DNA of 40,686 nt from an uncultured Pirellulales bacterium (GTDB lineage: Bacteria > Planctomycetota > Phycisphaerae > Sedimentisphaerales > Anaerobacaceae), in assembly GCA_964527825.1 (NCBI GenBank), contig CAZGRF010000001.1:1-40686 (forward strand). Direction: 5' to 3'. This document shows, piece by piece, positions 7,898 through 24,491 of this stretch (within the stretch, counting starts at the first letter, position 1; the number at the start of each line of letters is the position of its first letter). A program made the position numbers and the translations under genes. The notes beneath the pieces are model-generated. The model ran no database searches and was not told where the DNA came from. It saw only the letters and a program-made list of their open reading frames with translations.

Positions 7898-8680
7898 ATG
7901 GAATTAGGACTCAAGGGCAAATGTGCATTGATCACCGGCGGCAGTCACGGCCTGGGTTGCAGTACGGCCGTGGCTCTGGCCAGGGAAGGCTGTAACGTCG
8001 CCATATGTGCGCGGGGACAGCGCCGCATTGATGAAACACTGGCCGAACTGGATGCCTACGGAGTCGAGACGTTGGGCGTAGCGGCTGACGTCGTAAAGCC
8101 AGAGGATGTCGCAAAGGTCGTTGACACGGTCCTTAGCGCATGGGGCACGGTACATATTCTCGTTAACAATGTCGGCGGCGGTGGTCGCTGGGGAACGCCG
8201 GTGATAGAGGAAACGGCGGAAGAGGTATGGCTGGAAGTCTACGCCAAAAACGCTCTGGCCGCTGTGCGCTTCACCACGGCGATTCTCCCCTGTATGCGCA
8301 AGCAGAAGTGGGGAAGAGTTGTGACGGTGAGTTCACGGCTCGGTCGTGAAGGGGGAGGCAGGCCGTGGTTTGCGATGGCAAAGACGGCGCAGACGGCGAT
8401 GATGAAGTCCCTTGCCATGACACCTTACCTGGCCCGCGACGGCATCACCTGCAACTCGGTAGCGCCCGGCAGCATCATGATACCGGACACCGGCTGGGAG
8501 CGCGAAGCCTTGGAGAATCCCGAAGCGTTTCAGCAGATGCTGGAGAAGGACTTCCCTCTGGGCCGGTTGGGGACGCCGGAGGAAGTCGCGGACGTGATCG
8601 TATTCTTGTGTTCGGAGCGAGCGTCACTGGTCAATGGCGCGTCCGTTCTTGTGGATGGAGGCGAAAGCCGGGCTTTTTGA
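7898..8680 (+). CDS. Classical SDR oxidoreductase (FabG-like), non-canonical active site
   Basis: Motifs are LITGGSHGLGCSTAVALA (TGxxxGxG) and NNVG, with Ser in VTVSS. The position of YxxxK reads WFAMAK, so Phe replaces the catalytic Tyr. GGTGGAG lies upstream of ATG 7898. Confidence 0.8.
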   Translation: MELGLKGKCALITGGSHGLGCSTAVALAREGCNVAICARGQRRIDETLAELDAYGVETLGVAADVVKPEDVAKVVDTVLSAWGTVHILVNNVGGGGRWGTPVIEETAEEVWLEVYAKNALAAVRFTTAILPCMRKQKWGRVVTVSSRLGREGGGRPWFAMAKTAQTAMMKSLAMTPYLARDGITCNSVAPGSIMIPDTGWEREALENPEAFQQMLEKDFPLGRLGTPEEVADVIVFLCSERASLVNGASVLVDGGESRAF

Positions 8681-8696
8681 ACTGTGGAGCGTGCCG

Positions 8697-9716
8697 ATGA
8701 CCGGCAATGAAATAGTGCATGGCAATTGCGACGACATCGCGCCAGGTCTGTACACCGTGGCAGGTGCGGCAGGTCTGATGGGCACTTCTGCACTCAGGCG
8801 ATTGCATGGCGCGCCAGGTGTGAATGTGCGCGCCGTGTACCACAGAAGAAAGCCGTTGATAGAGGGAGACAGCATTGAACTCGTGCAAGCGGACTTGCGA
8901 GATGAAGAGGCTTGCCGTGCGGTCTGTTCCGGAACCGACTATGTGTTTATGTTCGCTGGCATTCTCTCCACGGCGGCGGTGCTCGCGCGAGATCCGGTTG
9001 CGCACATCATCGATAACGTGGCGATGACAACGCGCATGATGCAAGCCGCCTACGAGAGCCGCGTCAAGACGTTTGTGTGGCTGAGCAGTTCGACGGGTTA
9101 TCCACAGCAAGTATCCTCGTTGACGGAAGATGACATGTTTCACGGCGACCCCCCGGCGGGATACTTCGCCGTCGGCTGGTATTCTCGCTACATCGAAAAG
9201 CTGGCGCAGCACTATGCACAGCATGTGCCTAATCCTTTGCAGGTGGTAATGCTACGGCCCACGACGATCTATGGAGAATATGAATCGTTCGATCTTGACG
9301 AATGTCACATGTTGCCCGCGCTGGTGAGGAAGACGATCAAGCGGATGAATCCGATCGAAGTCTGGGGCGACGGTGAGCAAAAGCGTGACCTTATCTATGC
9401 CGATGACGTGTTGACCGCCTGCCTTCTCGCCATGCGGCAGAGCGAGCCCTATCAGGTATACAACGTGGGAGCAGGGGTGCAGTACAGCGTCGAGGACTTG
9501 TTGCGCACGATCATCGAGCAGGACGGATATGCGAATGCTCGGGTCGAGTACAGGATGGACAGACCGTCAGCCCCGGTCCGGCGTGAGCTGGATCTCGCTC
9601 GGTCCCGCGCCGTCCTCGGCTTTCGGCCGCAGACGTCAATTGAAGATGGCATTCGTCGAATGATACACCGTTGCCGAAAACTGTACGGTGTCCCAGTGTT
9701 GGAGGAGGCAAAATGA
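8697..9716 (+). CDS. Extended SDR, NAD-dependent epimerase/reductase (GDP-L-fucose-synthase-like fold)
   Basis: An internal ATG at 8697 is preceded by GGAG. The 8634 start would overlap the upstream gene. Motifs are VAGAAGLMGTS (GxxGxxG), SSSTGYP, RPTTIYG and CHMLPALVRK..VWGDGEQKRDLIYADDV. Confidence 0.75.
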   Translation: MTGNEIVHGNCDDIAPGLYTVAGAAGLMGTSALRRLHGAPGVNVRAVYHRRKPLIEGDSIELVQADLRDEEACRAVCSGTDYVFMFAGILSTAAVLARDPVAHIIDNVAMTTRMMQAAYESRVKTFVWLSSSTGYPQQVSSLTEDDMFHGDPPAGYFAVGWYSRYIEKLAQHYAQHVPNPLQVVMLRPTTIYGEYESFDLDECHMLPALVRKTIKRMNPIEVWGDGEQKRDLIYADDVLTACLLAMRQSEPYQVYNVGAGVQYSVEDLLRTIIEQDGYANARVEYRMDRPSAPVRRELDLARSRAVLGFRPQTSIEDGIRRMIHRCRKLYGVPVLEEAK

Positions 9717-11050
9717 GAGTCGGAGTCGTCGTTTCGTCATGGCATTACTTTGCGGACCCCTTCAAGTTGCAGCCGCTATATGAGCTGTTCCATGCAACGA
9801 TCGCAAGGCGACACGGCCTTGGGCAGGAGAATGTGACGGTCTACGACCTGCGCGAGTGGCGCCGGTCGGAGGACGTGGATTTCGAGGCCCATCTCGACCA
9901 GTACGTGGATGAGAATGATCTGTACTTCTATTGGGTCATGAAGACAGCGGATTATCCGGAGGTCGAAGAGACGGTGCGCTTCCTGCGCCGGAAGTATCCT
10001 CGATCCGTACACATAGCGGGAGGAACGCACATTGATGTCTGCATTGATGAATGCGCCCCAGTGTTTGATGCGGTCCTCTCCGGTCCGGGCGACAGGAGTC
10101 TCTGTGAGTGCATCGACGACCATCGTGCCGGCCGGCTGAAGGGTCGCTACACGGACGACTGGAGCCGGCGGCCCTATTCGGCGGCGCCATATCCCCGGCG
10201 TGAGTTTCTCCCTGAACATGCCGTGGTCAACACGGAGTTGTTTCGCCAGTACGGCGGAGTTCGCGCCACATCGGCGATGCTCCAACGCGGTTGCTGCTTT
10301 CGCTGCGCCTACTGTGCGTATAACGTGCCGCCGATGATCCAGAGACGAACGCCGGAGCAGATAAAGGAGGAGGTCGCTTATCTGAAGGAGACGTATCATA
10401 TCGGTGGATTGAACCTGCGGGATGAAATCGCCATTCCCCTGAATCCCCGGATTGCGGAGTCACACTTGAAGGCCCTGGGTGAATGCGGGCTCATCTGGCG
10501 CGGTCAGACCAAGGTCGGGGCGGCCAAGAATGAGGTGGTGCCGCCGGAGATCATCGCGTTGGCGGCGGAAACCGGTTGCGTCGAATTGGCTGTTGGGGTG
10601 GAGAGTGCCTCGCAACAGGTGCTGGACCTGATCGACAAGAGGCAGGACATTGAAGCCGCGCGGGATTTCATCATTCAGTGTCGCGCGCACGGCATAAGGA
10701 TCAAAATGTGTCTGATTCTCGGTTTGCCGGGCGAGCCACCGGACATCATCGATCGGACTCTAGCGCTCATCGAAGAGGCGCAGCCCGATTTCGTCAACGT
10801 GTCCGGCTTCTGTCCGGTGCCCGGATCACCGATCTTCAAGCGTCCGTCAGAATACGGAATCAAGAGCATCGATCGTGATTGGCGCAGACACGCGCATCTC
10901 GTCTTTCGGTACTCCGACGAAGAAGATTTCGGTCTGCCGTTCGAATACGAAGAGAATGGGCCTTGGGGCCGGAATTTCACCCGAGACGAGATCGTTGAAA
11001 ACATCAAGTCGCTGCAAAAACGTCTTCGTGCGCGAGCGATGGTCTATTAG
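9713..11050 (+). CDS. B12-binding-domain (class B-like) radical SAM enzyme
   Basis: ATG at 9713 forms an ATGA overlap, with GGAGGAGG upstream. The N-terminal cobalamin-binding-like domain ends ..HIAGGTHIDVC..FDAVLSGPGDRSL. The CxxxCxxC cluster motif CCFRCAYC is at 10292-10315. Confidence 0.75.
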   Translation: MRVGVVVSSWHYFADPFKLQPLYELFHATIARRHGLGQENVTVYDLREWRRSEDVDFEAHLDQYVDENDLYFYWVMKTADYPEVEETVRFLRRKYPRSVHIAGGTHIDVCIDECAPVFDAVLSGPGDRSLCECIDDHRAGRLKGRYTDDWSRRPYSAAPYPRREFLPEHAVVNTELFRQYGGVRATSAMLQRGCCFRCAYCAYNVPPMIQRRTPEQIKEEVAYLKETYHIGGLNLRDEIAIPLNPRIAESHLKALGECGLIWRGQTKVGAAKNEVVPPEIIALAAETGCVELAVGVESASQQVLDLIDKRQDIEAARDFIIQCRAHGIRIKMCLILGLPGEPPDIIDRTLALIEEAQPDFVNVSGFCPVPGSPIFKRPSEYGIKSIDRDWRRHAHLVFRYSDEEDFGLPFEYEENGPWGRNFTRDEIVENIKSLQKRLRARAMVY

Positions 11051-11061
11051 GAGCAGGTTCC

Positions 11062-12246
11062 ATGCTGAGTTTGTACAACGGACAGATGCCGTATCACAGA
11101 CGTTCCTGTGCTGCGCCGTGGACAACACTTGTGCTGGACAAGGACGGGAGTCTCTCATTCTGTTGTTACCTGAAAGGGCTGGCCAACATCTATGAGATGT
11201 CGGACAGGGCGTTCGAGGAAGTCTGGAACGGGCCGGTGGCCCGACGTGTCAGGAACCAGTGGGTCGAGGGACGTCTCGAGGGACTCCGTTGCGCGAACTG
11301 CCCTGGGCTTCAACGCTTCGGGGAGTATCCTCACTATGCGTTGACAAAGCCCGATTTGTTCCAAGGCTCGAACCCGGCGGCGCTCAACGCCCGGCTGAAC
11401 CTGAAGGAGTTTGTGGCGGGGGCAACTCGCCTTCAATCAGCTCCGCTGGAAATCGTGTATATCCCCGGCGTAGCCTGTAACATCCAGTGCATTCACTGTT
11501 TTCAACCACGGGCCGGATCGGATACCGCGATCCCGCCCCAGCAATTGCTCCGGTTCTACCATCTGTTGGGAGACCGGGCCATTCTTCACTTGATGTCGGG
11601 CGGCGAACCTTTAGTCATTCCGGCGGTGGAGACTTTGGTCCAGGCCATTTCGGCCGAACACCGAGCCGGTTCGGAGATCATCCTGCAAACCAATGGCCAG
11701 TTGCTCAAGGATCGTTTTCGCCGCTTCCCAGGCTTCAAGAAATATCACGTTAGAATCAGTATCGACGGCTATGACAAGGAGACGTATGAGTACATCCATC
11801 GCGGCGCCCAATTCGAGCGTCTTCTCGAGGGCATTGCCGAGGTCAACGAGGCCCGAGGCGAGCTTGATGTCACTACCTCTCTGGTCATGGTTCTCATGCT
11901 CTCCAACTTTCGTAACCTGAACATGCTGTTCGATTTCGCCGATGAGCACCTCTTCAATGATGTCTGGGTGACGCCCGTGCATGCTGCCTATGGGAAACGA
12001 GATGCTTTGAGAAACGAGAACATCTTTGAATTCAGAGATCTCTTGCATCGTGTGCCCGAATGGCCTGACACACTTGACAACGCCATTGAACGATCCATGC
12101 TGTCGGGCCGGCACCTGGCCTGCAGGCATCTGGAGTACATCAAAGGTGAGCTGACAAAGCCGGGCGCGCGAAATGCGAACGTCACCACTTGTGCGGTGGG
12201 TCAGCGAACGGCAGCTCGTGTTCCCAACGGTGTGGTGGCTCACTGA
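11062..12246 (+). CDS. Radical SAM enzyme with N-terminal twitch/SPASM-like Cys-rich domain
   Basis: ATG at 11062 with AGGAG upstream. The N-terminus CAAPWTTLVLDKDGSLSFCC...VWNGP...CANCPG (11107-11307) fits CX12GX4C plus CX2C. The radical SAM CxxxCxxC (CNIQCIHC) follows at 11476-11499, then SGGEPL. Confidence 0.7.
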   Translation: MLSLYNGQMPYHRRSCAAPWTTLVLDKDGSLSFCCYLKGLANIYEMSDRAFEEVWNGPVARRVRNQWVEGRLEGLRCANCPGLQRFGEYPHYALTKPDLFQGSNPAALNARLNLKEFVAGATRLQSAPLEIVYIPGVACNIQCIHCFQPRAGSDTAIPPQQLLRFYHLLGDRAILHLMSGGEPLVIPAVETLVQAISAEHRAGSEIILQTNGQLLKDRFRRFPGFKKYHVRISIDGYDKETYEYIHRGAQFERLLEGIAEVNEARGELDVTTSLVMVLMLSNFRNLNMLFDFADEHLFNDVWVTPVHAAYGKRDALRNENIFEFRDLLHRVPEWPDTLDNAIERSMLSGRHLACRHLEYIKGELTKPGARNANVTTCAVGQRTAARVPNGVVAH

Positions 12247-12318
12247 TCGTACGGTGATGGCGCGATCTGACGGTGCGTGCCGTGATTCCAGGTTCTTCGT
12301 TTTGAAGAAGGCTAACCG

Positions 12319-13314
12319 ATGATACATGATGAGATACTGACTCAGTTGTGCGGCTCGAATGCCCTCGTCACCGGCGGCACCGGCTTGATTGGACGCCAGG
12401 TAGTGAGAATCCTGTGTGACGCGGGCGCGAGCATTCGAGTGGTTTCCCTCGACCGGATGAAGGTCGATGAACGGGCCGAGCATGTCACAGGTGATCTGGC
12501 AGACTTCGATCTCTGCAAACAGCTCACCAGGGACATGGATTACGTGTTTCACGTTGCCGGCATCAAAGGGTCCATCGATGTAACCAAGAGCAAACCGGCC
12601 AGCTTCTTCGTGCCGTTGCTGATGATGAACACCAACATGCTCGAAGCAGCCAGAGTCTGTGGCGTCAAGAAGACGGTCTACACGAGTTCCATCGGGGCTT
12701 ATCCCAGTGCGGAAGTGTTCAAAGAGTCGGACGGCGATGACGGTCCTCCGATGGACATGTTTCCCGGGTGGGCCAAGCGCATGGCGGAGATGCAGATCCA
12801 GGCGTATCGGATTCAATACGGGCTGCAGAACTTCGCTGTAGTCCGCCCGTGCAACGTGTACGGCCCCGGGGACAACTTCGATCCTAACAATGCCATGGTG
12901 ATCCCCTCATTGATGTACCGCATCCGTAACGGGGAAGACCCCTTGTTGGTCTGGGGAGACGGCTCGGCCGTCCGGGATTTTGCCTACAGCGAGGACGTCG
13001 CAGAGGGCGTCATTCTCGCGCTCTATCACGGCACGCAGGGGCGTTACGTGAACCTTGGCAGTGGACGCGGATATTCGATCCGTGAGCTGGTAGAGACATT
13101 GAACAGTTTCATTCCCTTCAACTACGAGTTCGATACGACGAAATCATCGGGCTTTCCGCGGCGCGTCATGGACATCTCTTTGGCCCGCGACACGCTCGGC
13201 TACGATCCGCAGACATCCTTGGCGGACGGTTTGAAGAAGACCTGGGAATGGTTTGTAGCCAACCAGGAAGAGTATCTGAATCGGAAGAACTACTTCGCGG
13301 AAGCGGGTGTGTAG
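12319..13314 (+). CDS. Extended SDR, GDP-L-fucose-synthase-like epimerase/reductase paralog
   Basis: Motifs are ALVTGGTGLIGRQV, YTSSIGAYP, RPCNVYGPGDNFDPNNAMVIPSL and LVWGDGSAVRDFAYSEDV. The active-site region reads FPGWAKR, with no Tyr four residues before the Lys. Confidence 0.75.
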   Translation: MIHDEILTQLCGSNALVTGGTGLIGRQVVRILCDAGASIRVVSLDRMKVDERAEHVTGDLADFDLCKQLTRDMDYVFHVAGIKGSIDVTKSKPASFFVPLLMMNTNMLEAARVCGVKKTVYTSSIGAYPSAEVFKESDGDDGPPMDMFPGWAKRMAEMQIQAYRIQYGLQNFAVVRPCNVYGPGDNFDPNNAMVIPSLMYRIRNGEDPLLVWGDGSAVRDFAYSEDVAEGVILALYHGTQGRYVNLGSGRGYSIRELVETLNSFIPFNYEFDTTKSSGFPRRVMDISLARDTLGYDPQTSLADGLKKTWEWFVANQEEYLNRKNYFAEAGV

Positions 13315-13833
13315 ATGCAAGTGCAAACGACAAAGCTTGAAGGCGTCTTGCTTATACAACCGCCGACGGTTTTCGAGGATTTCCGCGGAACCTACGTCGA
13401 GACCTACAACGAGCAACTGTACCGGGACAGCGGGGTCGATGTCACCTTCGTACAGGATGACATCTCCGTTTCGAGCCGACATGTCCTGCGTGGCATTCAC
13501 GGCGACGCGGAAACGTGGAAGCTCGTCTCCTGCCTGTATGGGAAGTTCTATCTCGTAGTCGTCAACGGGGACAAGGAATCGAGCGAGTACGGTCGATGGC
13601 AGGGCTTCACGCTGTCGGAACACAATCGACTACAGGTCCTGATCCCGCCCAGACACGGCAATGGACACGTGGTCATGAGCGAGCAGGCCATCTTTCATTA
13701 CAAGCAGTCAACGTACTACAACCCGAAAGGCCAATTCACGATCGTTTGGAACGATCCGGCGTTCAACATTTGGTGGCCGGTCAAACGGCCCATCCTCTCG
13801 CGCCGGGATGAAGTCGGGCATTTCGTGGAATAG
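13315..13833 (+). CDS. RmlC-like cupin sugar-nucleotide 3,5-epimerase
   Basis: Motifs are FEDFRGTYVETY, VLRGIHGD, KLVSCLYGKFYLVVV and IPPRHGNGH..IVWNDPAFNIWWP. It starts immediately after the upstream stop. Confidence 0.8.
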   Translation: MQVQTTKLEGVLLIQPPTVFEDFRGTYVETYNEQLYRDSGVDVTFVQDDISVSSRHVLRGIHGDAETWKLVSCLYGKFYLVVVNGDKESSEYGRWQGFTLSEHNRLQVLIPPRHGNGHVVMSEQAIFHYKQSTYYNPKGQFTIVWNDPAFNIWWPVKRPILSRRDEVGHFVE

Positions 13834-13844
13834 TCGAGGAAACG

Positions 13845-14795
13845 ATGTTTCAAGGACGAAACGTACTGGTGACCGGAGGAGCGGGCTTCATCGGCTCCAG
13901 GCTGGTCGAGCGGCTGCTGGCGGTGGGGGCTCGGGTCCGCGCTACGCTCCATCAGAAGGACGCCGTGCTTTCAGATGACAGGATTGAGTATGTGCGCGGC
14001 GACCTGATGCAAGCCGAAGACTGCCGCCGTGCTTGTGAAGACATGGAATACGTGTTCCTCTGTGCGGCCAACACCTCCGGCGCGGCGGTGATGGAAACGA
14101 CGCCGCTGGTCCATCTGACGCCCAACCTGATCATGAACGCGAGGATGCTGGAGGCGGCCCACGCGGCCGGCGTGAAGAAGACGCTTTTCATCAGCAGTAA
14201 CACGGTTTATCCCGTCTCAGATAGCCCGGTGCAGGAAACGGATGTCACGAACGAATTCTTTGAGAAGTACTTCATTGTGGCATGGATGAAGCGTTTCACG
14301 GAGATCATGTGCGAGATGTATGCCACAAGGATCAAGAAACCCATGCAGACAGTCGTTGTTCGTCCGGCCAACGCCTACGGGCCGGGCGACAAGTTCGACT
14401 GGGAAACCTCCCATGTATTGCCGGCCTTGATCCGTCGTGTAGTTGAGCGTCACGACCCCATCCGGGTGTGGGGCGACGGCAAGGATGTCAAGGATTTCAT
14501 CTATGCAGACGATCTCGTGGAGGGCATGCTGCTGGCGATGGAGAAGATAGACGGCTTCGACGCCGTCAATCTGGCCAGCGGCAGGGAGTATTGTCTGCGC
14601 GATGTTCTGGCCTTGATTATCAAGCTCGACGGCTACGCGGGCGCTCGGGTCGAGTACGACACGAGCAAGCCCACCATGATTCCGAAACGTCTCATCGATC
14701 CGTCAAAGGCAAGGCGTTTGCTGGGCTTCGAGGCAACAACACCCTTGGAAGCCGGCCTGCGGAAGACCATCGACTGGTACAGGAGCACCCTATGA
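13845..14795 (+). CDS. Extended SDR, GDP-L-fucose-synthase-like epimerase/reductase paralog
   Basis: Motifs are VLVTGGAGFIGSRLV, FISSNTVYP, RPANAYGPGDKFDWETSHVLPALIRR and VWGDGKDVKDFIYADD. The active-site region reads YFIVAWMKR. Confidence 0.75.
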   Translation: MFQGRNVLVTGGAGFIGSRLVERLLAVGARVRATLHQKDAVLSDDRIEYVRGDLMQAEDCRRACEDMEYVFLCAANTSGAAVMETTPLVHLTPNLIMNARMLEAAHAAGVKKTLFISSNTVYPVSDSPVQETDVTNEFFEKYFIVAWMKRFTEIMCEMYATRIKKPMQTVVVRPANAYGPGDKFDWETSHVLPALIRRVVERHDPIRVWGDGKDVKDFIYADDLVEGMLLAMEKIDGFDAVNLASGREYCLRDVLALIIKLDGYAGARVEYDTSKPTMIPKRLIDPSKARRLLGFEATTPLEAGLRKTIDWYRSTL

Positions 14796-14944
14796 TTGTT
14801 ACCCATACGTCGTCCAAGATTCCCCGCCCCGATGTCGAAGCGTCCCGCCAGTCGGCTAAGGGGTCCGTCGTGGCTGAGCTTCACAGGGACGCTCCTGATT
14901 CGAGTTCGTTTGCAGAGAGCCGTCGGATCGTACAGGGCCACCCG

Positions 14945-15934
14945 ATGGTCATCACCCGTACGCCGTTCAGAATCTCGTTTTTCGGCGGTGGCACGGACTA
15001 TCCTGTCTACTACAGGGAGCAGGGCGGTGAGGTCCTGAGCACGACCATCAACCAGTACTGCTATGTCACTTGTCGCTACCTTCCACCTTTCTTCGACTAC
15101 AAATACCGGGTTCGCTACTCCAAGAGCGAGACCACGAACACTATCGATGAAATCGAACATCCCTCGGTCAGGGAATGCCTGCGTTTTTGCGGTATCGACC
15201 GCTGTGCGGAGATCGTGCATACCAGCGACATCCCGGCCATGTCCGGTATCGGGTCCAGTTCCTCCTTTACCGTGGGACTTCTACAGGCACTGTACGCGCT
15301 GAAAGGGGAGATGGTCACCAAGCGACAGTTGGCGTTCGATGCTATCCATGTCGAGCAGGACATCATCAGGGAGAGCGTCGGCTCGCAGGACCAGACGGCC
15401 GCGGCCTTCGGCGGCTTGAACCATATCGAGTTCGGCGGACGGAGCGACGGCATCTTCGTTCAGCCGGTCATCATGTGCCCGGAAAAGCTCGCTTATCTCC
15501 AGGAACATCTGCTCTTCTATTTCACAGGCTTTTCTCGATATGCGTCGGAGATCGCCCGCGAACAGGTCCGAAACACGCATCGGAAGCTCAGCGAACTCAA
15601 GCGGATGCGCGAAATGGTGAGTGAAGCGTTGGATATCCTGAGAGGTCCCGTCCATGGCTACGAAGCGTTCGGCAGGCTTCTGCACGAGTCCTGGATGCTC
15701 AAGAGAGAGCTTACCGACCTGATTTCGAACAGCACGATAGACGAGATCTATGAAACGGCGCTCCGAGCAGGCGCCTTGGGCGGGAAGCTGTGTGGCGCAG
15801 GCGGCGGGGGATTCATCCTCTTCTTTGTTCCGCCCGAGCGACAACCTCGGGTCAAGGCAGCCTTGGACCGCCTCTTGTTGGTGCCGATGCGGTTTGAGAA
15901 TCTCGCCTCACACATCATATTTTACGCACATTGA
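14945..15934 (+). CDS. GHMP-family sugar kinase, COG2605 / D-glycero-D-manno-heptose-7-phosphate kinase (HddA)-like
   Basis: The start MVITRTPFRISFFGGGTDYP is the typical N-terminus of this family. The GHMP motif is DIPAMSGIGSSSSF, and the C-terminal part has GGKLCGAGGGGF. An alternative in-frame ATG at 14792 (ATGA overlap with the upstream stop) would add 51 aa. Confidence 0.8.
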   Translation: MVITRTPFRISFFGGGTDYPVYYREQGGEVLSTTINQYCYVTCRYLPPFFDYKYRVRYSKSETTNTIDEIEHPSVRECLRFCGIDRCAEIVHTSDIPAMSGIGSSSSFTVGLLQALYALKGEMVTKRQLAFDAIHVEQDIIRESVGSQDQTAAAFGGLNHIEFGGRSDGIFVQPVIMCPEKLAYLQEHLLFYFTGFSRYASEIAREQVRNTHRKLSELKRMREMVSEALDILRGPVHGYEAFGRLLHESWMLKRELTDLISNSTIDEIYETALRAGALGGKLCGAGGGGFILFFVPPERQPRVKAALDRLLLVPMRFENLASHIIFYAH

Positions 15935-15941
15935 CTCTCCT

Positions 15942-18900
15942 ATGGGCCCAGGAGCCGAAGTCCGTGTTAGCATGAGGTGCGAAGTGATGTCAGTCGATAA
16001 GAGCACACCGATGTTTTCCATCTTCTCGGCTATCAAGAATGTCGAGAGCCGTGAAGCTATGTTCCGGCGCTGCATCGAGAGCGTTCTCAACCAGACGTTT
16101 GGGGATCTCGAGTGCGTCATACAGGACGGCGGGTCCGCAGATAGAACGGCGGATATCGTCGCGGAATACCAGGATCCACGAATCCGGTTCCTGTCAGTCC
16201 CTGATTCCTGTGGCGAAGAGGGTTTCTTCCGGGCGCTACAGCGGTGTCGCGGGACGTACATTGGCTCGTGCCTGTCCGATGAGGAGTTGCTGCCGGATGC
16301 GCTGGAGAACGCCCGGCGGGCCTTCGAGGATCACCCGCAGGTTGCCGCGTTCTATGGAAATGTCTGCTATGTCAATGAAAAGGGAGAAAAGTGGGGCCCT
16401 CGGATACCGCCTCATCCGTTTTCCATCGAGGCTTATGTATGCCAGACCTTAGTTCCGCCTTTCTGCTCTTCGTTCTTTCGGCGAGAGGCTGTCGAGAAAG
16501 CGGGGCTACACGAGCATCACTGGCGATACGGCATAGGAGAATTCGAGTTCTGGGTTCGGATTGCGGGCGCGGGAGGCATTATCTACCTGCCCTTCAACAT
16601 CAGCCATTTCGGCCGGCACTCGCAGTCCAATACGCGCAGTGTGGGAGTATACGATCAGTTGTTGGCGGGGCGAGAGGGGGTGATGCGCGACCTCTTTCGT
16701 GAAAACACGATCCTGCGAGAGTGCAGCGTCAGCGTCGAGCAGGCGATCGCGGGCAACTACGTCTGGGGGGCCAGCGGGGTATTCAACATCGAGGGGCTGT
16801 CCAGGAAGTGTGAGTACTTCATGCAGCAGGCTGAGCGGTATGACCCAGGAAGTCCCCAATTAGCGAGGCTAAGGAGCCGCGTGTACAAGGCGGCCCCACC
16901 TCGGCTCACAACAGACAGCACATGCTCCGCCGCGGTCCGGAAAGACTCTTCACTGCCTCCTTCGGGGGAATTCGCACGTTGGCTCAAGGTTCTGTCTTCG
17001 ATGGACAATCGCCTGTACTACCGGGACCAGTCTCCTCAGACTCTGGCTGCTCTGTGCTCTCTGGCCCACGATTTCGAGCCCACAGTGATTGTGGAGATCG
17101 GCACTCTGGGAGGATTGTCTTTGCGAACGTGGCTGGCCGGCACCGAGCGGGCCAGGATCGTTGCGGTTGATCTCAGCTTTGCCAAGCTCACGCAGACGCG
17201 TCGTGTTCTTCCTCTGGATCTATCCCGTGTGACTCTCCTGGAGCAGGATATCCTCAAGACGGATTTCTCGACTCTCTGGACGGCGCAGGACAGGGTGGTC
17301 CTCTTTGTCGATGCGCACGATCTGCCCAACGTGCCGATCATGCAGCATGTGCTCACGAAGGCTCTACCTTGTTTGCCGGAGGGGAGTCTCGTCATCGTAG
17401 ACGATCTGTGGTTCAGTGAACAGAGACTAACGCGCGAGAATGCCGGGGCCTTTTTGGAGAACCATGTGGTCGGCGAGATCGATGAGCTGCAGTGCTTCAA
17501 TGGGCACTACGCCCCACACCACGCAGGTGGTTCGTTCATGGGTTTTGCCGAGGTGATCCCGCTCCTGGAGTTTGTCAATAGGCACGGCATCACGCTTGTC
17601 CATGACAGAGAAGACAAACACGCCTGTTTCACGTGGAAGAGAGAGTACCTGTCGCAGAATCAGGGACGTGTTGGACAAGGTCCCGTCGAACCTGACGAGT
17701 GTTGGGGCGCCGTATTGTACAATCCCCTGGAATCTGTACCCGTGTCCGGGCCGCTGCGTGAGATGGTGAGTCGCATCGCCACTGTCTATTCACAGGGTAA
17801 GACGAGGCAAGTTGCCGAGAGCCTCCAGCAGCTCTTTGGGCAGCATCCCCATGACCAGGGGCTGTGCTATGCCTTGGCGGTCTGTCTGGCCAGGTTGGGT
17901 ATGCTCTCGCAGGCCAAGGACGTTCTTGTCGGCGGTTCGACCGACTCCAACCACCCACGCTACCAGCGGCTCCTTGACGATCTTGTTGAGCGCGTCGAAC
18001 CGTCTGGATCGCACCGGTCTCAGGAGTTGCGACCGCCGGCAGATGAGCGCGGTCTGACCATCTTTGCCTTGCCTAAACCCTTCGCCGGCGACATTGCCAC
18101 CATTCAGAAGAACGCCATTCGAAGTTGGGCGAGGCTCAGACCGATGCCGGAGATCATTCTCTTCGGTGACGAACCCGGGACGAGGCAAATGGCCGAGGAG
18201 ATCGGTGCTCGCCATGTTCCGGAAATCAGCCGCAACGAGTTTGGCACGCCTCTCGTCGACAAGCTCTTTCAGGCCGCGCAGGACCATGCTTCCCACACCG
18301 TCATGGCTTATGTGAACGCCGACATGATCCTCTTCCAGGACTTCGTCGAGGGGGTGCGAACGGTGCAGACCGGTTTGTCGAGTTTTCTTCTCATCGGCCA
18401 ACGCTGGGATGTCTCGATCTTCGATGAGATCGATTTCGACCGGCCCGAGTGGCAACAAACACTCGAGAGGCGGATGGAAGAACAGGCTATGATCCATCCT
18501 GAGTCCGGCTTGGACTACTTCGTCTTTCGCAAGGGCTTGTGGCCGACGATTCCTCCCTTTGCCATCGGAAGGACGGTATGGGACAATTGGTTGGCCATGG
18601 ATCCTCACAGACGGGGCGTTCCGGTGGTAGACGGCACAGAATGCATCACCGCCGTTCATCAAGACCATGATTACGGGCACATGGCCGGGGGGCGGCAAGA
18701 GGCCTGGACCGGTGTGGAAGCCGCTCAGAACCGCGCGCTGGCCGGCGCGACGGACGGTTCGGGACGCACTTCTGGAGCTACCTGCGCTTTGAAGAAGGGC
18801 GGCGTACTGGTCAAGGTGAAGCCCCACAAGTCCTGGTGCAGTACTACTGTGTACAAAGACGAGCGGAGTGCTTGGTTGCTGAAGCAAGCAAACGGCCTGG

Positions 18901-21900
18901 TCGCCATCGACAAAGAGGAATTGGCCGCCTGCAAATGTGACGAGGCGTTGGTGGTTCTGCGAAATCTGCTTTCGCTGGTGCAGCGTAAGTCTCCGCAGGT
19001 GGAGTCTCTGGATCGTGTCGTCATCGCTCAGCGATACGTGAGCTGCCATACACTGTTGGCCCAGTGCTACCAGAAGATGGGACGCTACGATCAGGTCGCG
19101 GCGACCTACACGCGGCTTCTGAAGAATCCTTTCGTGCAGATCCCGCAAGCTGCGCGAGATGATATAGCCCGATTGCGGGATCAGGCTGCGTGTTTCTCAC
19201 GTGAGAAGCGGCTTTCGACAGGTTCGCAGGGTGGTTCAGAACACCGGGACATCAGGCTGGGGGTGGTCCAGACGCAGAACATGACACCGTCACAGGGCGA
19301 AAGCCGGTTGGCCCCGGCGCTTCGGAGTGCGGGCGATCCTGAACCTGCGGCCTCGTGCGCATCCGGTCTGCATGCTGCTGATCATCGGCCGAAAGTCACG
19401 GTGATCACAGCGTGCTGGAACAGTGAAGAACACTTGCCGGAATGTCTTGATAGCATTCTGGGTCAGACCATGCCGGATTGGGAGCTGTTTCTGCTCGACG
19501 ATGGCAGCACAGACGGCACGCGACACATCATTGAGGAGTATGCTCGCCGCGATGCACGGATCAAGGCTCATTGCTTTGACGACAACCGAGGGCCCTACGT
19601 TCGGCGGAACTTTGCCATCGAACGAGCCAGTTCTGATTTCATCGTGATTCAGGACGCCGACGACATGATGTGTCCCGACAAGCTGGAGCGGCTCTACCGC
19701 GCCATCATGCAAGACCAACGACTGGGCGTTGTCGGTTCTTTCTACCTCATGTTCCTCGAATGGTACCAGGGGCCGGAGCACGCAGATGAGGTGACTCTGA
19801 AGACCACGCACGAACAGATTCTCCAAGACTATCGTGATTGTGCCATATGCGATTATTCCTGGCATGGTTCCGCCATCATCCGGAAACGCCTGTTCGAAGA
19901 GATCGGTCTCTATGATGAGAATCCCTTCAGTTCGGATTCCTTCTGGTTGGCCAAAATGGCTGAACTCGCATGTCGTAGCGACGGGATTCGGTTGAAGAAC
20001 ATTTCCGAGTTCCTGACTTTGCGAAGAATGCGGGCGGATTCACAAACGGGCAGTCTGCCCTCATTCGATCCGCGCAGCCGGCGGGCCAAGTTCCGCGATT
20101 ACCGCCGGAGTATGCTGTCCGAGGTGATGCAGAGACTCGACGTGGACCCGAGCGCCGATGTCAAGGCGGAACTGCGCAAGTCCGTCTGCAATGATTTCGT
20201 CGCGCGCAACGGTCATCTCTTTGATTCTTGGGAAGGCCAGCCGCTGACGAATCAAACCGTGGGTCGTTTTATCAGTAGAATCTACACGCAGTTCTGCTTG
20301 GGGCAATTCGTGCGCTGTATCAACACATGCGGCATCGTGGAGCGCTTGGTTGAGGGGGTGGCACAGATGATGCCCTGTTACGACCTAACCCGGGGTCTGG
20401 CGTACTTCGCACTTGGTTTGCCGCAAAAGGGCAAAGAGCATCTTGAACGAGAGTACCGCAGGCACGGCACCATTGCCGCCAGGGATTTCTGCTGGCAGTA
20501 CATCGATGCGGACACGGCCGAATGGACCAAAGCCCAGCGAGTCGAGATCATCCGTCGAGCCATTTTCGACGGCGTATCGAACGAGACATCCATGGCCCTG
20601 GCGCGCGACGGTCTAACGTGCTTGTGGGACCGTCGCGGTGGTCGCTCGCCAGAACTGTCGCTTGTTGTTGAGTTCAACGAGAATCCGACTCAATGCTATG
20701 AACGGCTTGTGGCGCTGAACGAGCAGAACGAGAAGACCTTCGAAGTCGTCGCACTGGCCTCCACGGAGAGCTCACAGGCTTTGAGAGAAGCGGCGAGCAA
20801 GGTCGATTTCGATGTGGTACTGCTGACGGCAGAGGGCGATATCAGTCGATGGCGCCGACGGAACCTTGCCGCCGGGTACGGCCGAGGGCGGTTCGTGGCG
20901 TTCCTGGACCAGTGCGTATGGCCCGAACGCGACTTCGTGCAAGCCGTTCTGCAGGCATTTCGGGAGAATGAGATCGATGGCCTCAGAGGCAAGATCGTCG
21001 CATTCTCTGGCGGTGACTTGCCCGTCTACTGTGATTTGGGAGACATCCCGATCTATGCGGCCTGTGACACGGACCAGATGTGTGTGTTCCGAAAGGATGT
21101 CTTCACGAGCCTTGGCGGTTTCTTGGAGACGCCGTTCAGCCGAGGAGCCATTGTCCTTTCGTACCTGATATACACAAGTGAGCAGGTGGAAAGACGCCCG
21201 ATTCTCTACTGTCCGAACGTCGTGGTCCGAAGAGTTGTCGAGCCCAAACGCTGCTTCGGATTGTTCGATCCGTACGCGATGGAGAATCGGTTCTGCACCG
21301 AGCGGCTCAGCCGGTTGATCGATCCGCAGACCAGAGACGAGCAGGAGATCGCGGTCTTCTTGAGATTCGTCGAAAGCCTGTATGCTGCTGGAGAAGGCAC
21401 GGAGGATGAGCGATACGAGCGGGCCCTGAGCAACAGTCTGTTCTTTCTGAACAGATTCCCGCGTATTGCGTTGGAGTGGGCCCAGAAGGCGCTGGCGGAG
21501 CGTCAGAATTCAATCAGGGCCAAGTGTTTAGTCGGTCTCTCGAGCGCCACTATGAGTCAGCCTGACCAGGCTTGCGCGTTTCTCAGTGAGGTTGTTGATC
21601 CGTTGGAGCGGCTGTTGGCTGCCGGCCGAGTGGATCGTTCGCAATGCGAATTCGACGACTACGCTTGTTTGCCGGGTCTTTACATATCCACCTGCACGCT
21701 GCTGGCTCAGTCCCTCATGAAGATGGGGCGGCACGAACAGGTCGCTGCGACCTACACACGTCTTTTGGCGAACCGCAACGTGTGCCTCTCCGAGACCCGG
21801 AGGAATGACATGGAACGGTTGCGTGACCGACTGCTCGCGGTCTGCGGAGCCAACACCAGTCATGACGCGATATCAGGGCAGCGACCGAACTCCCAGGCGG

Positions 21901-24491
21901 CGCAGGTCCGCGAACGCCCTGCGGCATCGTCAGTTGAACGAACAGCGGAGACTGTCGATGATATCGAACCTGCTACTCCGCACGCGCACGCCTTGGCCGA
22001 GTTTGAATGCAAATACAGATCCATGCCCAATCGTGCGCCGGCAAAGCATGTTGCGGCTGTCCGGCTGTCCGAGCTCTGCCGCCGGATGGGGCAGGCCGAA
22101 AAGGCTAACGCGTACGCCATCCAGGCCTTGAAGATCAAGAACAACGTTGCATTCGAGGACGCTAAGCGGCGCAAGCCGAGCGTCTGCAACCACAAGCCTA
22201 CCATCGTGGAATTCAACGTCATCACACGGTGCAATGCCGGCTGTATCATGTGCAATTATGGACCGCAGGGGAAGACCCTAGAATTGGACCAATTCAAACG
22301 CTTGGCCGATGAACTGCTCCCGACGGCGCAGAGGACTCTCTTGATCGGCGGAGAGGTGCTGCTCCACCCCGATTTCTACGCGATGTGCGAGTATACCAGC
22401 CGCTTTGGTGTTTGTCTGGAGATGACGACCAACCTGTCTACTCTCGCCGGCAATCGAGCCGAGGCCATTCGACGGTTCTTTGGTTCGGTCCGAGTCTCCA
22501 TCGACGGGGCCACCAAGCAAACGTATGAATCGATACGAACGCATCTGAGCTTCGACAGGCTACAGGAGAACCTTCGGAAGCTGGCCGAGATCAAGCGGCA
22601 GAGACCCGATCTGGCACTCCAGTTGGCGTTTGCCGCGATGAGGCAGAACATTGTCGAGCTTCCCGACACGATCGAGATGGTGGCGCGATTCGGTTTTGAC
22701 AGTGTGGCCGTCAGCTTCGTGCACGTCCATGCCAGGTTGACGCTCGATGACTCGTTGGTCTTCCACCGGGAGGAGGCGAACCGTTACTTCGACCTGGCTC
22801 GACAGAGGGCCGCGGCATTGGGACTGCGACTTGACATCCCCAACAACTTCGATCTGAGCCGACAGCCGTTTCTTGCTCCTGAGAGACTGAGCGATGGACA
22901 CAAGCAGTGTGTCAGGCCGTGGCAGCGGGTCAGAGTACACATCAACGGCGATATCATACCTTGCTGCCGTCTGTACGGCCTACCCATGGGCAACGCCTTT
23001 GCAGAGCCGTTCGAGCGGACCTGGAACGGCCCGAAATACGAGGGCCTCAGGGAAGCCATTGCCAACAGCAGCGATTGCCTGCCGGCGGAATGCAAGCACT
23101 GTGAGCTAATCACTGGGCCGACGGATTCGAATGACGCGTTGTTACACATCAATTCGAGTTGTCTGCCTGAACTGAAGAAACGCCTTGAAGAGCGTCCATC
23201 CGAGCAGCGAACCGGTGCTGTCGCCTGTGGATCAGGCGGTGTCCGTCGTCCCAAAGTCACCGTCGTCACAGCGTGCCGCAACGGCGAGCGGTTCCTGGCG
23301 GAATCGTTGGAGAGTGTCCGCAATCAGAGCCTGCAGGAATGGGAGTTGCTTCTACTCGATGACGCCAGCACGGATGGGACGCGACGCATCATCGAGGAAT
23401 ACGCGCGTCGAGACCCTCGTATCAAGCCGTTCTATTTCGATGTTAGCGCAGGACCCTACGTCAGACGCAATTTCGCGATCGAACGAGCTGACTCCGACTT
23501 CATTGTCATCCACGATTCCGACGATCTCATGATGCCGACCAAGCTGGAGAGGTTGCACAATGAGATCAGCAGGGACAGCCGTCTGGCGATGGTAGGTTCC
23601 TTCTACCGTACCTTCTTCGAGGATTTCAAGGGTATCCAGTACACGGATCCGATCGAGTTGCCTACTACACACGAGGAGATCACGCAGAAGTCGCTGACAT
23701 GGCAGCATGGAGTCAGTCACATCTCGGCAATCATCCGAAAGTCGATGTTTGACTGCATCGGAGGCTACGATGAGAATCCCTTTGCTTCCGATGCTTTCTG
23801 GTCCGCGAAGCTTGCCGAATGCTCCCGGCACAGCTCCAATGCACGCGTTAGGAACATCCCCGAATATCTGACCCTGTACAGGGTGCACAACGATAGTCAG
23901 ACGCAGGTCCTCTCCATGTTCGACCCGCGTAACAGGAGGGTCCGATACCGCAGCTACTGTGAGTGCAAACTGGAACGAATCCGGGAGAAAATGCGGTCTG
24001 TGCCTGAGACGGATATCGCCCGCGAGCTCCGGAATTGCACGTGTTCCGATTTCTTGATGCGCTTCAAGGCCCATATCATCCGGTGGGAGAATGAGCCGCT
24101 CGATCGGCGTGTGACTGACGATCTATTGCGGGGTGCCGTCGGAGCGTTCAATGGAGGGTATCACGTCAGTTGTGTCAATATTCTCCACGGCACTGAAGTC
24201 ATGGAGCCTGCGATCTCCAGACGCATCATGGGCTTTGACTTGCTCAGAGGCATGGCCCTCTTCGCTTTGGACATGAGGGCCCGGAGCATGGAATGCCTGC
24301 AGAAGGAGATTCAGAATCATGACAACTCGGCGGCGCGGAAGTTCATGACCGACGCCTCTGCGGCAGAGGCACAGATCGACGTGTTGACGTGGTGCCAGGA
24401 GAACGCCGGGCAGCACGATCTGGGCTTGCGTACCGCTGAGTCCGTCGTGTCTCGGGGTACTGCCCCCTGTGCGGGCGCAGCGCGAAAATAG
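15942..24491 (+). CDS. Giant multidomain glycosylation protein (~2850 aa): several GT2/GT-A modules + CmcI-like methyltransferase + TPR-like linkers + radical SAM/twitch-SPASM module
   Basis: One uninterrupted frame runs for 8.7 kb. Candidate starts are ATG 15942, 15972 and 15987, the last with GAGG 8 nt upstream. Recognisable in-frame modules are:
- GT2 at ~16010-16650
- CmcI-like MTase (VIVEIGTLGGLS) at ~16970-17650
- GT-A-like module (IFALPKPFAGDIATIQKNAIRSW...) at ~18050-18690
- GT2 (VITACWNSEEHL..LLDDGSTDGT..QDADD) at ~19390-19950
- degenerate GT-like module at ~20657-21200
- radical SAM (CNAGCIMC at 22230-22253) plus Cys-rich twitch/SPASM at 22908-23105
- GT2 (VVTACRNGERFL..LLDDASTDGT..HDSDD) at ~23245-23800. 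Confidence 0.85.
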   Translation: MGPGAEVRVSMRCEVMSVDKSTPMFSIFSAIKNVESREAMFRRCIESVLNQTFGDLECVIQDGGSADRTADIVAEYQDPRIRFLSVPDSCGEEGFFRALQRCRGTYIGSCLSDEELLPDALENARRAFEDHPQVAAFYGNVCYVNEKGEKWGPRIPPHPFSIEAYVCQTLVPPFCSSFFRREAVEKAGLHEHHWRYGIGEFEFWVRIAGAGGIIYLPFNISHFGRHSQSNTRSVGVYDQLLAGREGVMRDLFRENTILRECSVSVEQAIAGNYVWGASGVFNIEGLSRKCEYFMQQAERYDPGSPQLARLRSRVYKAAPPRLTTDSTCSAAVRKDSSLPPSGEFARWLKVLSSMDNRLYYRDQSPQTLAALCSLAHDFEPTVIVEIGTLGGLSLRTWLAGTERARIVAVDLSFAKLTQTRRVLPLDLSRVTLLEQDILKTDFSTLWTAQDRVVLFVDAHDLPNVPIMQHVLTKALPCLPEGSLVIVDDLWFSEQRLTRENAGAFLENHVVGEIDELQCFNGHYAPHHAGGSFMGFAEVIPLLEFVNRHGITLVHDREDKHACFTWKREYLSQNQGRVGQGPVEPDECWGAVLYNPLESVPVSGPLREMVSRIATVYSQGKTRQVAESLQQLFGQHPHDQGLCYALAVCLARLGMLSQAKDVLVGGSTDSNHPRYQRLLDDLVERVEPSGSHRSQELRPPADERGLTIFALPKPFAGDIATIQKNAIRSWARLRPMPEIILFGDEPGTRQMAEEIGARHVPEISRNEFGTPLVDKLFQAAQDHASHTVMAYVNADMILFQDFVEGVRTVQTGLSSFLLIGQRWDVSIFDEIDFDRPEWQQTLERRMEEQAMIHPESGLDYFVFRKGLWPTIPPFAIGRTVWDNWLAMDPHRRGVPVVDGTECITAVHQDHDYGHMAGGRQEAWTGVEAAQNRALAGATDGSGRTSGATCALKKGGVLVKVKPHKSWCSTTVYKDERSAWLLKQANGLVAIDKEELAACKCDEALVVLRNLLSLVQRKSPQVESLDRVVIAQRYVSCHTLLAQCYQKMGRYDQVAATYTRLLKNPFVQIPQAARDDIARLRDQAACFSREKRLSTGSQGGSEHRDIRLGVVQTQNMTPSQGESRLAPALRSAGDPEPAASCASGLHAADHRPKVTVITACWNSEEHLPECLDSILGQTMPDWELFLLDDGSTDGTRHIIEEYARRDARIKAHCFDDNRGPYVRRNFAIERASSDFIVIQDADDMMCPDKLERLYRAIMQDQRLGVVGSFYLMFLEWYQGPEHADEVTLKTTHEQILQDYRDCAICDYSWHGSAIIRKRLFEEIGLYDENPFSSDSFWLAKMAELACRSDGIRLKNISEFLTLRRMRADSQTGSLPSFDPRSRRAKFRDYRRSMLSEVMQRLDVDPSADVKAELRKSVCNDFVARNGHLFDSWEGQPLTNQTVGRFISRIYTQFCLGQFVRCINTCGIVERLVEGVAQMMPCYDLTRGLAYFALGLPQKGKEHLEREYRRHGTIAARDFCWQYIDADTAEWTKAQRVEIIRRAIFDGVSNETSMALARDGLTCLWDRRGGRSPELSLVVEFNENPTQCYERLVALNEQNEKTFEVVALASTESSQALREAASKVDFDVVLLTAEGDISRWRRRNLAAGYGRGRFVAFLDQCVWPERDFVQAVLQAFRENEIDGLRGKIVAFSGGDLPVYCDLGDIPIYAACDTDQMCVFRKDVFTSLGGFLETPFSRGAIVLSYLIYTSEQVERRPILYCPNVVVRRVVEPKRCFGLFDPYAMENRFCTERLSRLIDPQTRDEQEIAVFLRFVESLYAAGEGTEDERYERALSNSLFFLNRFPRIALEWAQKALAERQNSIRAKCLVGLSSATMSQPDQACAFLSEVVDPLERLLAAGRVDRSQCEFDDYACLPGLYISTCTLLAQSLMKMGRHEQVAATYTRLLANRNVCLSETRRNDMERLRDRLLAVCGANTSHDAISGQRPNSQAAQVRERPAASSVERTAETVDDIEPATPHAHALAEFECKYRSMPNRAPAKHVAAVRLSELCRRMGQAEKANAYAIQALKIKNNVAFEDAKRRKPSVCNHKPTIVEFNVITRCNAGCIMCNYGPQGKTLELDQFKRLADELLPTAQRTLLIGGEVLLHPDFYAMCEYTSRFGVCLEMTTNLSTLAGNRAEAIRRFFGSVRVSIDGATKQTYESIRTHLSFDRLQENLRKLAEIKRQRPDLALQLAFAAMRQNIVELPDTIEMVARFGFDSVAVSFVHVHARLTLDDSLVFHREEANRYFDLARQRAAALGLRLDIPNNFDLSRQPFLAPERLSDGHKQCVRPWQRVRVHINGDIIPCCRLYGLPMGNAFAEPFERTWNGPKYEGLREAIANSSDCLPAECKHCELITGPTDSNDALLHINSSCLPELKKRLEERPSEQRTGAVACGSGGVRRPKVTVVTACRNGERFLAESLESVRNQSLQEWELLLLDDASTDGTRRIIEEYARRDPRIKPFYFDVSAGPYVRRNFAIERADSDFIVIHDSDDLMMPTKLERLHNEISRDSRLAMVGSFYRTFFEDFKGIQYTDPIELPTTHEEITQKSLTWQHGVSHISAIIRKSMFDCIGGYDENPFASDAFWSAKLAECSRHSSNARVRNIPEYLTLYRVHNDSQTQVLSMFDPRNRRVRYRSYCECKLERIREKMRSVPETDIARELRNCTCSDFLMRFKAHIIRWENEPLDRRVTDDLLRGAVGAFNGGYHVSCVNILHGTEVMEPAISRRIMGFDLLRGMALFALDMRARSMECLQKEIQNHDNSAARKFMTDASAAEAQIDVLTWCQENAGQHDLGLRTAESVVSRGTAPCAGAARK

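Follow-up and report, generated by a model that had tools for sequence, protein, structure and literature searches.

The locus described here raises the question of why an auxiliary-cluster domain, normally found behind the catalytic core of radical S-adenosylmethionine (SAM) enzymes, should be encoded in front of it. The locus lies in a 40,686-nucleotide stretch of DNA from an uncultured Pirellulales bacterium (GenBank assembly GCA_964527825.1, contig CAZGRF010000001.1, positions 1 to 40,686 of the forward strand; hereafter the window) and contains two tandem radical SAM genes on the + strand. Gene 1 (9713..11050) encodes an enzyme of 445 amino acids of class B, the cobalamin-domain type, and gene 2 (11062..12246) encodes an enzyme of 394 amino acids with an N-terminal twitch domain. 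SPASM and twitch domains are described as C-terminal to the barrel (PMC9012708, PMC9477430), whereas gene 2 has its twitch at residues 16-82, ahead of a core that starts near residue 130. An earlier note on this DNA, made from its letters alone, had offered two explanations: a circular permutation, or the remnant of a fusion in which the domain serves gene 1 in trans. We consider it likely that gene 2 is a self-contained radical SAM enzyme that inherited a widespread twitch-first order and that tailors a flagellar glycan pathway.

The N-terminal domain and core of gene 2

Judged from profile matches and alignments, the N-terminal domain of gene 2 (11107..11307, + strand) is homologous to twitch domains. 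The Pfam SPASM profile PF13186 covers residues 16-81 over its whole length (positions 1-67 of 67, E = 5e-8, 33.5 bits against a gathering score of 21.5), and the first 100 amino acids alone match positions 4-69 of the NCBIfam family NF033640 (E = 1.7e-8). The earlier note had proposed a search with both PF13186 and TIGR04085, and only the former gave a significant match: TIGR04085 scored 15.2 bits, below its cut-off of 27, and aligned over positions 1-66 of 93. A low score and coverage of just the first two-thirds of the profile would be expected of a half-SPASM, that is, a twitch.

To assess conservation we used an alignment of 56 relatives of gene 2 that are 17-69% identical to it. C16, G29, C34, R64, C77 and C80 are invariant in this alignment, and C35 is at least 90% conserved. 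An AlphaFold2 (AF2) model built from the same alignment folds gene 2 as a single compact unit (predicted local distance difference test score, pLDDT, 89.2; predicted template modelling score, pTM, 0.87), in which C16 precedes a β-hairpin (strands 22-25 and 30-32), C34 and C35 follow the hairpin, and a helix (58-69) leads into a turn carrying C77xxC80. The SkfB structure paper describes the SPASM/twitch fold as a β-hairpin followed by a helix, and in BtrN it puts one cluster ligand ahead of the hairpin, one behind it and two beyond the helix (PMC6231123); the predicted structure and the cysteine positions of gene 2 coincide exactly with this definition of a twitch. The earlier note had placed a twitch- or SPASM-like cysteine domain at this N-terminus, and had taken a missing profile match or unconserved cysteines as grounds for dropping the idea. 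What we found was a PF13186 match above the gathering score, ahead of the core, and cysteines that do not vary among the 56 relatives.

When the 56-sequence profile was compared with the sequences of the Protein Data Bank (PDB), positions 5-83 aligned to residues 166-247 of BtrN, which are its C-terminal twitch domain. A full SPASM domain has seven or eight conserved cysteines, including a CX2CX5CX3C motif, and the N-terminal region of gene 2 has five (residues 16, 34, 35, 77 and 80). The remaining cysteines are those of the core (139, 143 and 146) and two in the C-terminal region, C354 and C377, which are the only ones there and lie outside conserved columns. Since the 56-relative alignment contains no second conserved set of cysteines in the C-terminal part, the domain is a twitch rather than a full SPASM domain. 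We propose that C16, C34, C77 and C80 would ligate a single auxiliary [4Fe-4S] cluster, and that the N-terminal twitch would pack beside the active site, in the manner of a C-terminal one.

BtrN, the butirosin 2-deoxy-scyllo-inosamine dehydrogenase (PDB 4M7T), is the founding twitch radical SAM enzyme and a close parallel for this arrangement of cysteines: like gene 2, it has four, one before the hairpin, one after it and a CxxC after the helix, and it holds one auxiliary [4Fe-4S] cluster. Its substrate is sugar-like. The two differ in that the BtrN twitch follows the core (166-247 of 270 residues) while that of gene 2 precedes it, and in that gene 2 has an additional helical C-terminal region of about 60 residues.

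In gene 2 the twitch is followed by a linker of about 47 residues (83-129; 11308..11448, + strand), delimited from the AF2 secondary structure, in which a helix (105-118) joins the twitch to strand β1 of the core; N109, N113 and E116 of the linker are conserved in the close clade. The partial-barrel core (residues ~130-308; 11449..11985, + strand) is defined by Pfam, Foldseek and invariant residues. Pfam Radical_SAM (PF04055) matches residues 133-279 (E = 9e-16, 58.9 bits against 29.5), the CX3CX2C cysteines C139, C143 and C146 (11476..11499, + strand) are conserved across the 56 relatives, and in the GGEP motif at residues 180-183 G181 is invariant, with G180, E182 and P183 at least 90% conserved. 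Foldseek aligns the core to viperin, BlsE, MoaA, SuiB, DesII and anSME. The C-terminal region (residues ~309-365; 11986..12156, + strand) is formed by AF2 helices at 325-330, 334-347 and 351-365, and the tail (372-394) is predicted to be disordered, with pLDDT below 50 from residue 372.

Prevalence and origin of the twitch-first order

The twitch of gene 2 is assigned to a position ahead of the core, and the order is permuted relative to BtrN, to anSME and to the module of a giant glycosyltransferase protein encoded in the same window. As a permuted order this is what the earlier note had read, and both the Pfam matches and colinearity with NF033640 bear it out. NF033640 (N_Twi_rSAM, "twitch domain-containing radical SAM protein") is the best NCBIfam match of gene 2 and has the same domain order; the alignment is colinear, with window positions 11104-11502 matching family positions 4-129 and 11593-11979 matching 178-310. 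The RadicalSAM.org paper also mentions conserved cysteines on the N-terminal side of the barrel in some members of the SPASM/twitch megacluster, for which no structures were available (PMC9477430).

A full HMMER search of 1.84 billion representatives returned 270 at E ≤ 1e-30. We scored the twitch motif as CX9-16GX4C located 60-160 residues upstream of CX3CX2C; among the best 149 representatives the motif lay upstream of CX3CX2C in 97 and downstream in 24. The earlier note had taken the layout to be unusual; given the order of NF033640 and these counts, it is not so within its own family. The locus is thus a clear and well-conserved case of the opposite of the textbook order, in which SPASM or twitch stands behind the barrel, and this opposite order is common in metagenomes and apparently unstudied: our full-text literature searches found no publication describing an N-terminal twitch or SPASM enzyme, nor any on the biochemistry or structure of NF033640. 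The twitch-first family is a reasonable target both for structural work on the position of the cluster and for new radical sugar chemistry.

All ten relatives tested matched NF033640, which ranked first for eight of them and only just below first for the other two, and all ten scored below its cut-off (70-134 bits). Among 300 genomes from the phylum of the window, two encode members above the cut-off, L095 (376 bits) and L096 (178 bits). In L095, SPASM (28-92) precedes the radical SAM domain (139-286), a GT2 glycosyltransferase gene follows, and gene 2 is about 19% identical to this strong member. L096 (G062:C5:1427784-1431821) has an open reading frame (ORF; 34-2595, - strand) of 853 amino acids in which a twitch-first radical SAM enzyme is fused to a C-terminal GT4/GT1 glycosyltransferase domain. 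This fusion ties the twitch-first family directly to glycan synthesis, and members of NF033640 above the cut-off stand, as gene 2 does, in a glycan setting, beside or fused to glycosyltransferases. Five further relatives from the same phylum that score below the threshold are all SPASM-then-radical SAM, and three of them have C-terminal tetratricopeptide (TPR) repeats.

Gene 2 differs from the curated family in that it is sub-threshold and belongs to a separate small clade of close homologues, of which there are five in 5.8 billion clusters. It is a divergent new member of a recognised, uncharacterised kind, in a small clade scoring below the NF033640 cut-off. A scan of 185,579 species genomes, which used a pattern of the CX3CX2C region only, taken from a 7-sequence alignment, and returned mostly generic radical SAM cores, contained one true relative of gene 2, in a Dehalococcoidia genome (L015). 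Searches of 300 further genomes from the phylum gave no orthologue of either gene 1 or gene 2, a result in keeping with horizontal spread of the cassette.

The giant protein offers a direct comparison. It is about 2,900 amino acids long and carries TPR repeats and a radical SAM-SPASM module of its own (22215..23105, + strand, by Pfam), with the core at 22215-22592 (residues 2156-2281) followed by SPASM/twitch at 22908-23105 (residues 2387-2452). The module matches NF033640 in reversed order. By BLASTP the core of gene 2 is 30% identical to the giant core (E = 6e-11), and residues 14-58 of gene 2 are 33% identical to giant residues 2385-2428 (E = 2e-5 to 9e-5). Both pieces of gene 2 therefore match pieces of the giant protein, in the opposite order.

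Such a resemblance within one operon could mean that gene 2 arose recently in the locus, from a duplicated and circularly permuted copy of the giant protein's module. However, identity between the two is no higher than that between gene 2 and unrelated metagenome proteins, and in a FastTree phylogeny of 181 cores gene 2 falls in a supported clade of twitch-first forms whereas the giant module falls among forms with a C-terminal twitch. The twitch-first order is moreover old and widespread, occurring in the Dehalococcoidia genome, in this phylum and in many metagenome proteins. We therefore regard a recent local origin as very improbable, and gene 2 and the giant module, being on separate branches, are not recent paralogues. 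The earlier note had called the two domains paralogs by eye: they are homologous, and the operon and the core-plus-twitch content are shared, but the relationship is distant, the giant module has the canonical order within a protein of 2,900 amino acids, and it sits elsewhere in the tree of cores.

About seven switches between the two orders are needed on this quick tree, a rough count given its many long branches. Among the close relatives are tandem (twitch-radical SAM)x2 proteins, P0032 by Pfam and P0082 and P0094 by motif positions only, and multi-module chains of TPR, radical SAM and SPASM units (P0027-P0029, by Pfam). In such chains a twitch sits after one core and before the next, so that either order could be reached simply, by duplicating and then truncating such a unit. 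The permutation may thus have arisen by duplication and truncation of tandem chains.

The same genome also encodes the canonical order on another contig (G000:C388:170-1210, - strand; loci L004 and L006), where a radical SAM core is followed by SPASM/twitch. The twitch-matching frame there contains one in-frame TGA; this may code for selenocysteine, mark a frameshift or pseudogene, or come from an error in the assembly.

Gene 1 and its relation to gene 2

The two genes are separated by an intergenic gap of 11 nt, and the ribosome-binding site of gene 2, GGAG (11050..11053, + strand, read from the sequence), lies 8 nt before its ATG and overlaps the TAG stop codon of gene 1. Gene 1 itself is preceded by a strong Shine-Dalgarno sequence, GGAGGAGG, 4 nt 5' of its ATG at 9713, and this ATG shares bases with the stop codon of the epimerase gene upstream. 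On recomputation the coordinates of both genes, of the gene 1 cluster motif CCFRCAYC (CX3CX2C; 10292..10315, + strand) and of the cysteine region and CX3CX2C of gene 2 all agreed with those given by the earlier note.

With genes 1 and 2 so close together and apparently translationally coupled, and with the pair kept in one related contig, L009, the twitch could be imagined as a remnant of a gene 1-gene 2 fusion or as an auxiliary-cluster domain that serves gene 1 in trans. L009, which is syntenic with the window, is however the only contig that shares the pair. Orthologues of gene 1 (47-57% identity) occur in the L102, L103 and L104 cassettes, none of which contains a twitch-first radical SAM gene; in the conserved unit there an epimerase comes first, the class B enzyme second, and an epimerase and/or RmlC-like epimerase after it, and L102 and L103 also have a GHMP kinase. 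Conversely, the relatives of gene 2 in L010 and L015 have no class B neighbour. The database survey proposed in the earlier note showed the N-terminal twitch architecture to be common, and the fused gene 1-gene 2 orthologues it had suggested looking for did not appear among the ten long relatives of gene 2 checked, none of which has a B12 domain. Twitch and core follow one another within single polypeptides in ~100 diverse representatives, AF2 folds gene 2 as one unit, and class B enzymes with solved structures, among them TsrM, TokK and AprD4, are not known to require a twitch. Taken together, these observations leave the fusion-remnant and in-trans ideas with scarcely any probability. Since each gene is found without the other, gene 2 has been inserted, as an optional element, into a mobile sugar cassette, and gene 1 does not need it as a partner: the two are independent tailoring enzymes of the flagellar glycan cassette, with gene 2 as the optional add-on.

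The gene 1 cassette (window 8634-14795) recurs in unrelated lineages, often with genes for thiamine-dependent enzymes. In L103 two class B radical SAM paralogues stand in tandem. In L102 an ORF of 104 amino acids at the position of gene 2 was considered as a possible twitch remnant and rejected, as it has no cysteine motif.

Gene 1 matches Pfam Radical_SAM (E = 3e-16, 60.3 bits), has an N-terminal Rossmann-like domain at approximately residues 1-150, and C194, C198 and C201 of its CX3CX2C are invariant in 30 orthologues. The Pfam B12-binding match is weak, at 19.9 bits where the gathering score is 32.1, but precomputed PF02310 matches exist for many orthologues, and several are named B12-binding domain-containing radical SAM proteins by their sources. 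In its AF2 model (pLDDT 92.3, pTM 0.91) gene 1 has the class B radical SAM fold, with full-length Foldseek matches to TsrM (TMq 0.70), AprD4 (0.66, same length), MgmA, TokK, CysS and OxsB. These matches agree with the earlier assignment of gene 1 to the B12-type radical SAM enzymes. At least 230 full-length orthologues (43-58% identity) were found, in the database that holds five close homologues of gene 2, with source annotations placing several of them in Omnitrophota, Opitutales, Latescibacterota, Gemmatimonadetes and Pseudodesulfovibrio.

The reaction catalysed by gene 1 may be of either of two kinds. The cobalamin-dependent methylases TsrM and TokK share its class B fold over the full length, and of the NCBIfam matches of gene 1, all far below their cut-offs, the PhpK methyltransferase family comes first, with 86 bits where 600 are required. 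The best PDB sequence match is AprD4, a radical sugar diol-dehydratase (E = 3e-9; PDB 6FD2), which shares the two-domain class B fold and the length of gene 1 and acts on a sugar. AprD4, TsrM and TokK alike are only 15-19% identical to gene 1. AprD4 is class B in fold but is not known to need cobalamin. Genes for short-chain dehydrogenase/reductase (SDR) enzymes flank gene 1, in the way that the reductase AprD3 pairs with AprD4, which makes an AprD4/AprD3-like deoxygenation as plausible as C-methylation. We therefore suggest that gene 1 could be either a cobalamin-dependent C-methylase or an AprD4-like dehydratase, and the pathway may include a radical deoxygenation; the C-methylation named by the earlier note stands as one option, next to a dehydratase that is the best match among PDB sequences. 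For annotation, the gain is that the locus would be described as having two independent tailoring enzymes, gene 2 being an add-on and gene 1 perhaps a dehydratase rather than a methylase.

Glycan setting and candidate chemistry of gene 2

The genes stand in an island for flagellar glycosylation. Encoded in the window are a nucleotidyltransferase, a 4,6-dehydratase, two pairs of thiamine-dependent enzymes, methyltransferases, SDR epimerases, an RmlC-like epimerase and a GHMP kinase, followed by the giant multi-glycosyltransferase protein and fliD. Relatives of gene 2 stand in comparable company. In L010 the homologue adjoins an FkbM methyltransferase and an epimerase, and L015 contains AglB/STT3 oligosaccharyltransferases, a GT4 glycosyltransferase, two FkbM methyltransferases, a Wzx-type flippase and two dehydratases; in both, the gene 2 relative comes after FkbM-type methyltransferases. 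Across the neighbourhoods examined, the gene 2 clade is always beside sugar epimerases/dehydratases or sugar methyltransferases, and in every one the twitch-first order is found beside or fused to glycan-biosynthesis genes. In this setting, the most probable role of gene 2 is that of a radical tailoring enzyme added on to the flagellar glycan pathway.

Several points weigh against this interpretation. Gene 2 scores 87.6 bits against the NF033640 cut-off of 170, which makes it a relative and not a curated member of the family, and with five close homologues only, the context statistics for its clade are thin. A sequential structure search aligned only the core of gene 2, with TMq ≤ 0.44; sequential Foldseek cannot align a permuted domain. 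The chemistry of gene 2 is proposed by analogy only. Finally, the TPR repeats found in several relatives could be a sign that the substrate is a protein and not a sugar.

Gene 2 might accordingly modify a protein or peptide, such as flagellin or a glycosylated flagellin side chain, and not a free nucleotide sugar. Most SPASM/twitch enzymes act on proteins or peptides, and SkfB, which modifies a peptide, gives the best sequence match among solved structures; many relatives with the same order have TPR repeats, modules for protein interaction, and the adjacent giant flagellar glycosyltransferase combines such repeats with a radical SAM-SPASM module. Gene 2 itself, however, has neither a TPR repeat nor a recognition domain for RiPPs (peptides made by the ribosome and modified after translation) in a Pfam scan. 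It also lies among nucleotide-sugar enzymes rather than beside a precursor peptide, and the company of sugar epimerases, dehydratases or sugar methyltransferases is constant throughout its clade. A protein substrate is on this evidence unlikely, though less so than either of the origins rejected above, and we return to gene 2 as a glycan-tailoring enzyme.

As such, gene 2 would reductively cleave SAM at the cluster bound by C139, C143 and C146 and would abstract a hydrogen atom from a sugar carbon, the substrate being either a nucleotide-sugar intermediate or the growing glycan of the flagellar glycosylation operon. Two outcomes can be envisaged. The auxiliary cluster could serve as an electron acceptor or relay, as in the dehydrogenase BtrN, in which case the product would be oxidised. 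Alternatively, the near-invariant C35 is a candidate hydrogen-atom donor, which would result in epimerisation of the kind carried out by HygY, a twitch epimerase acting on a sugar. In either case gene 2 would represent an optional tailoring step inserted after gene 1.

A wider proposal, which we make tentatively and hold to be somewhat doubtful, is that twitch-first enzymes are a large unexplored class devoted to radical glycan tailoring, with the gene 2 clade performing a new radical sugar transformation on the way to the flagellin glycan. If true, this transformation could, for example, epimerise or oxidise a branched heptose or deoxy-sugar at an unactivated carbon. A full-text literature search on radical SAM enzymes and flagellin glycosylation returned nothing relevant.

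With regard to the annotation of the island, the longest ORFs of the GHMP kinase (14468-15934) and of the giant protein (15750-24491) overlap their upstream neighbours, and in both genes translation probably begins downstream of the first in-frame start codon.

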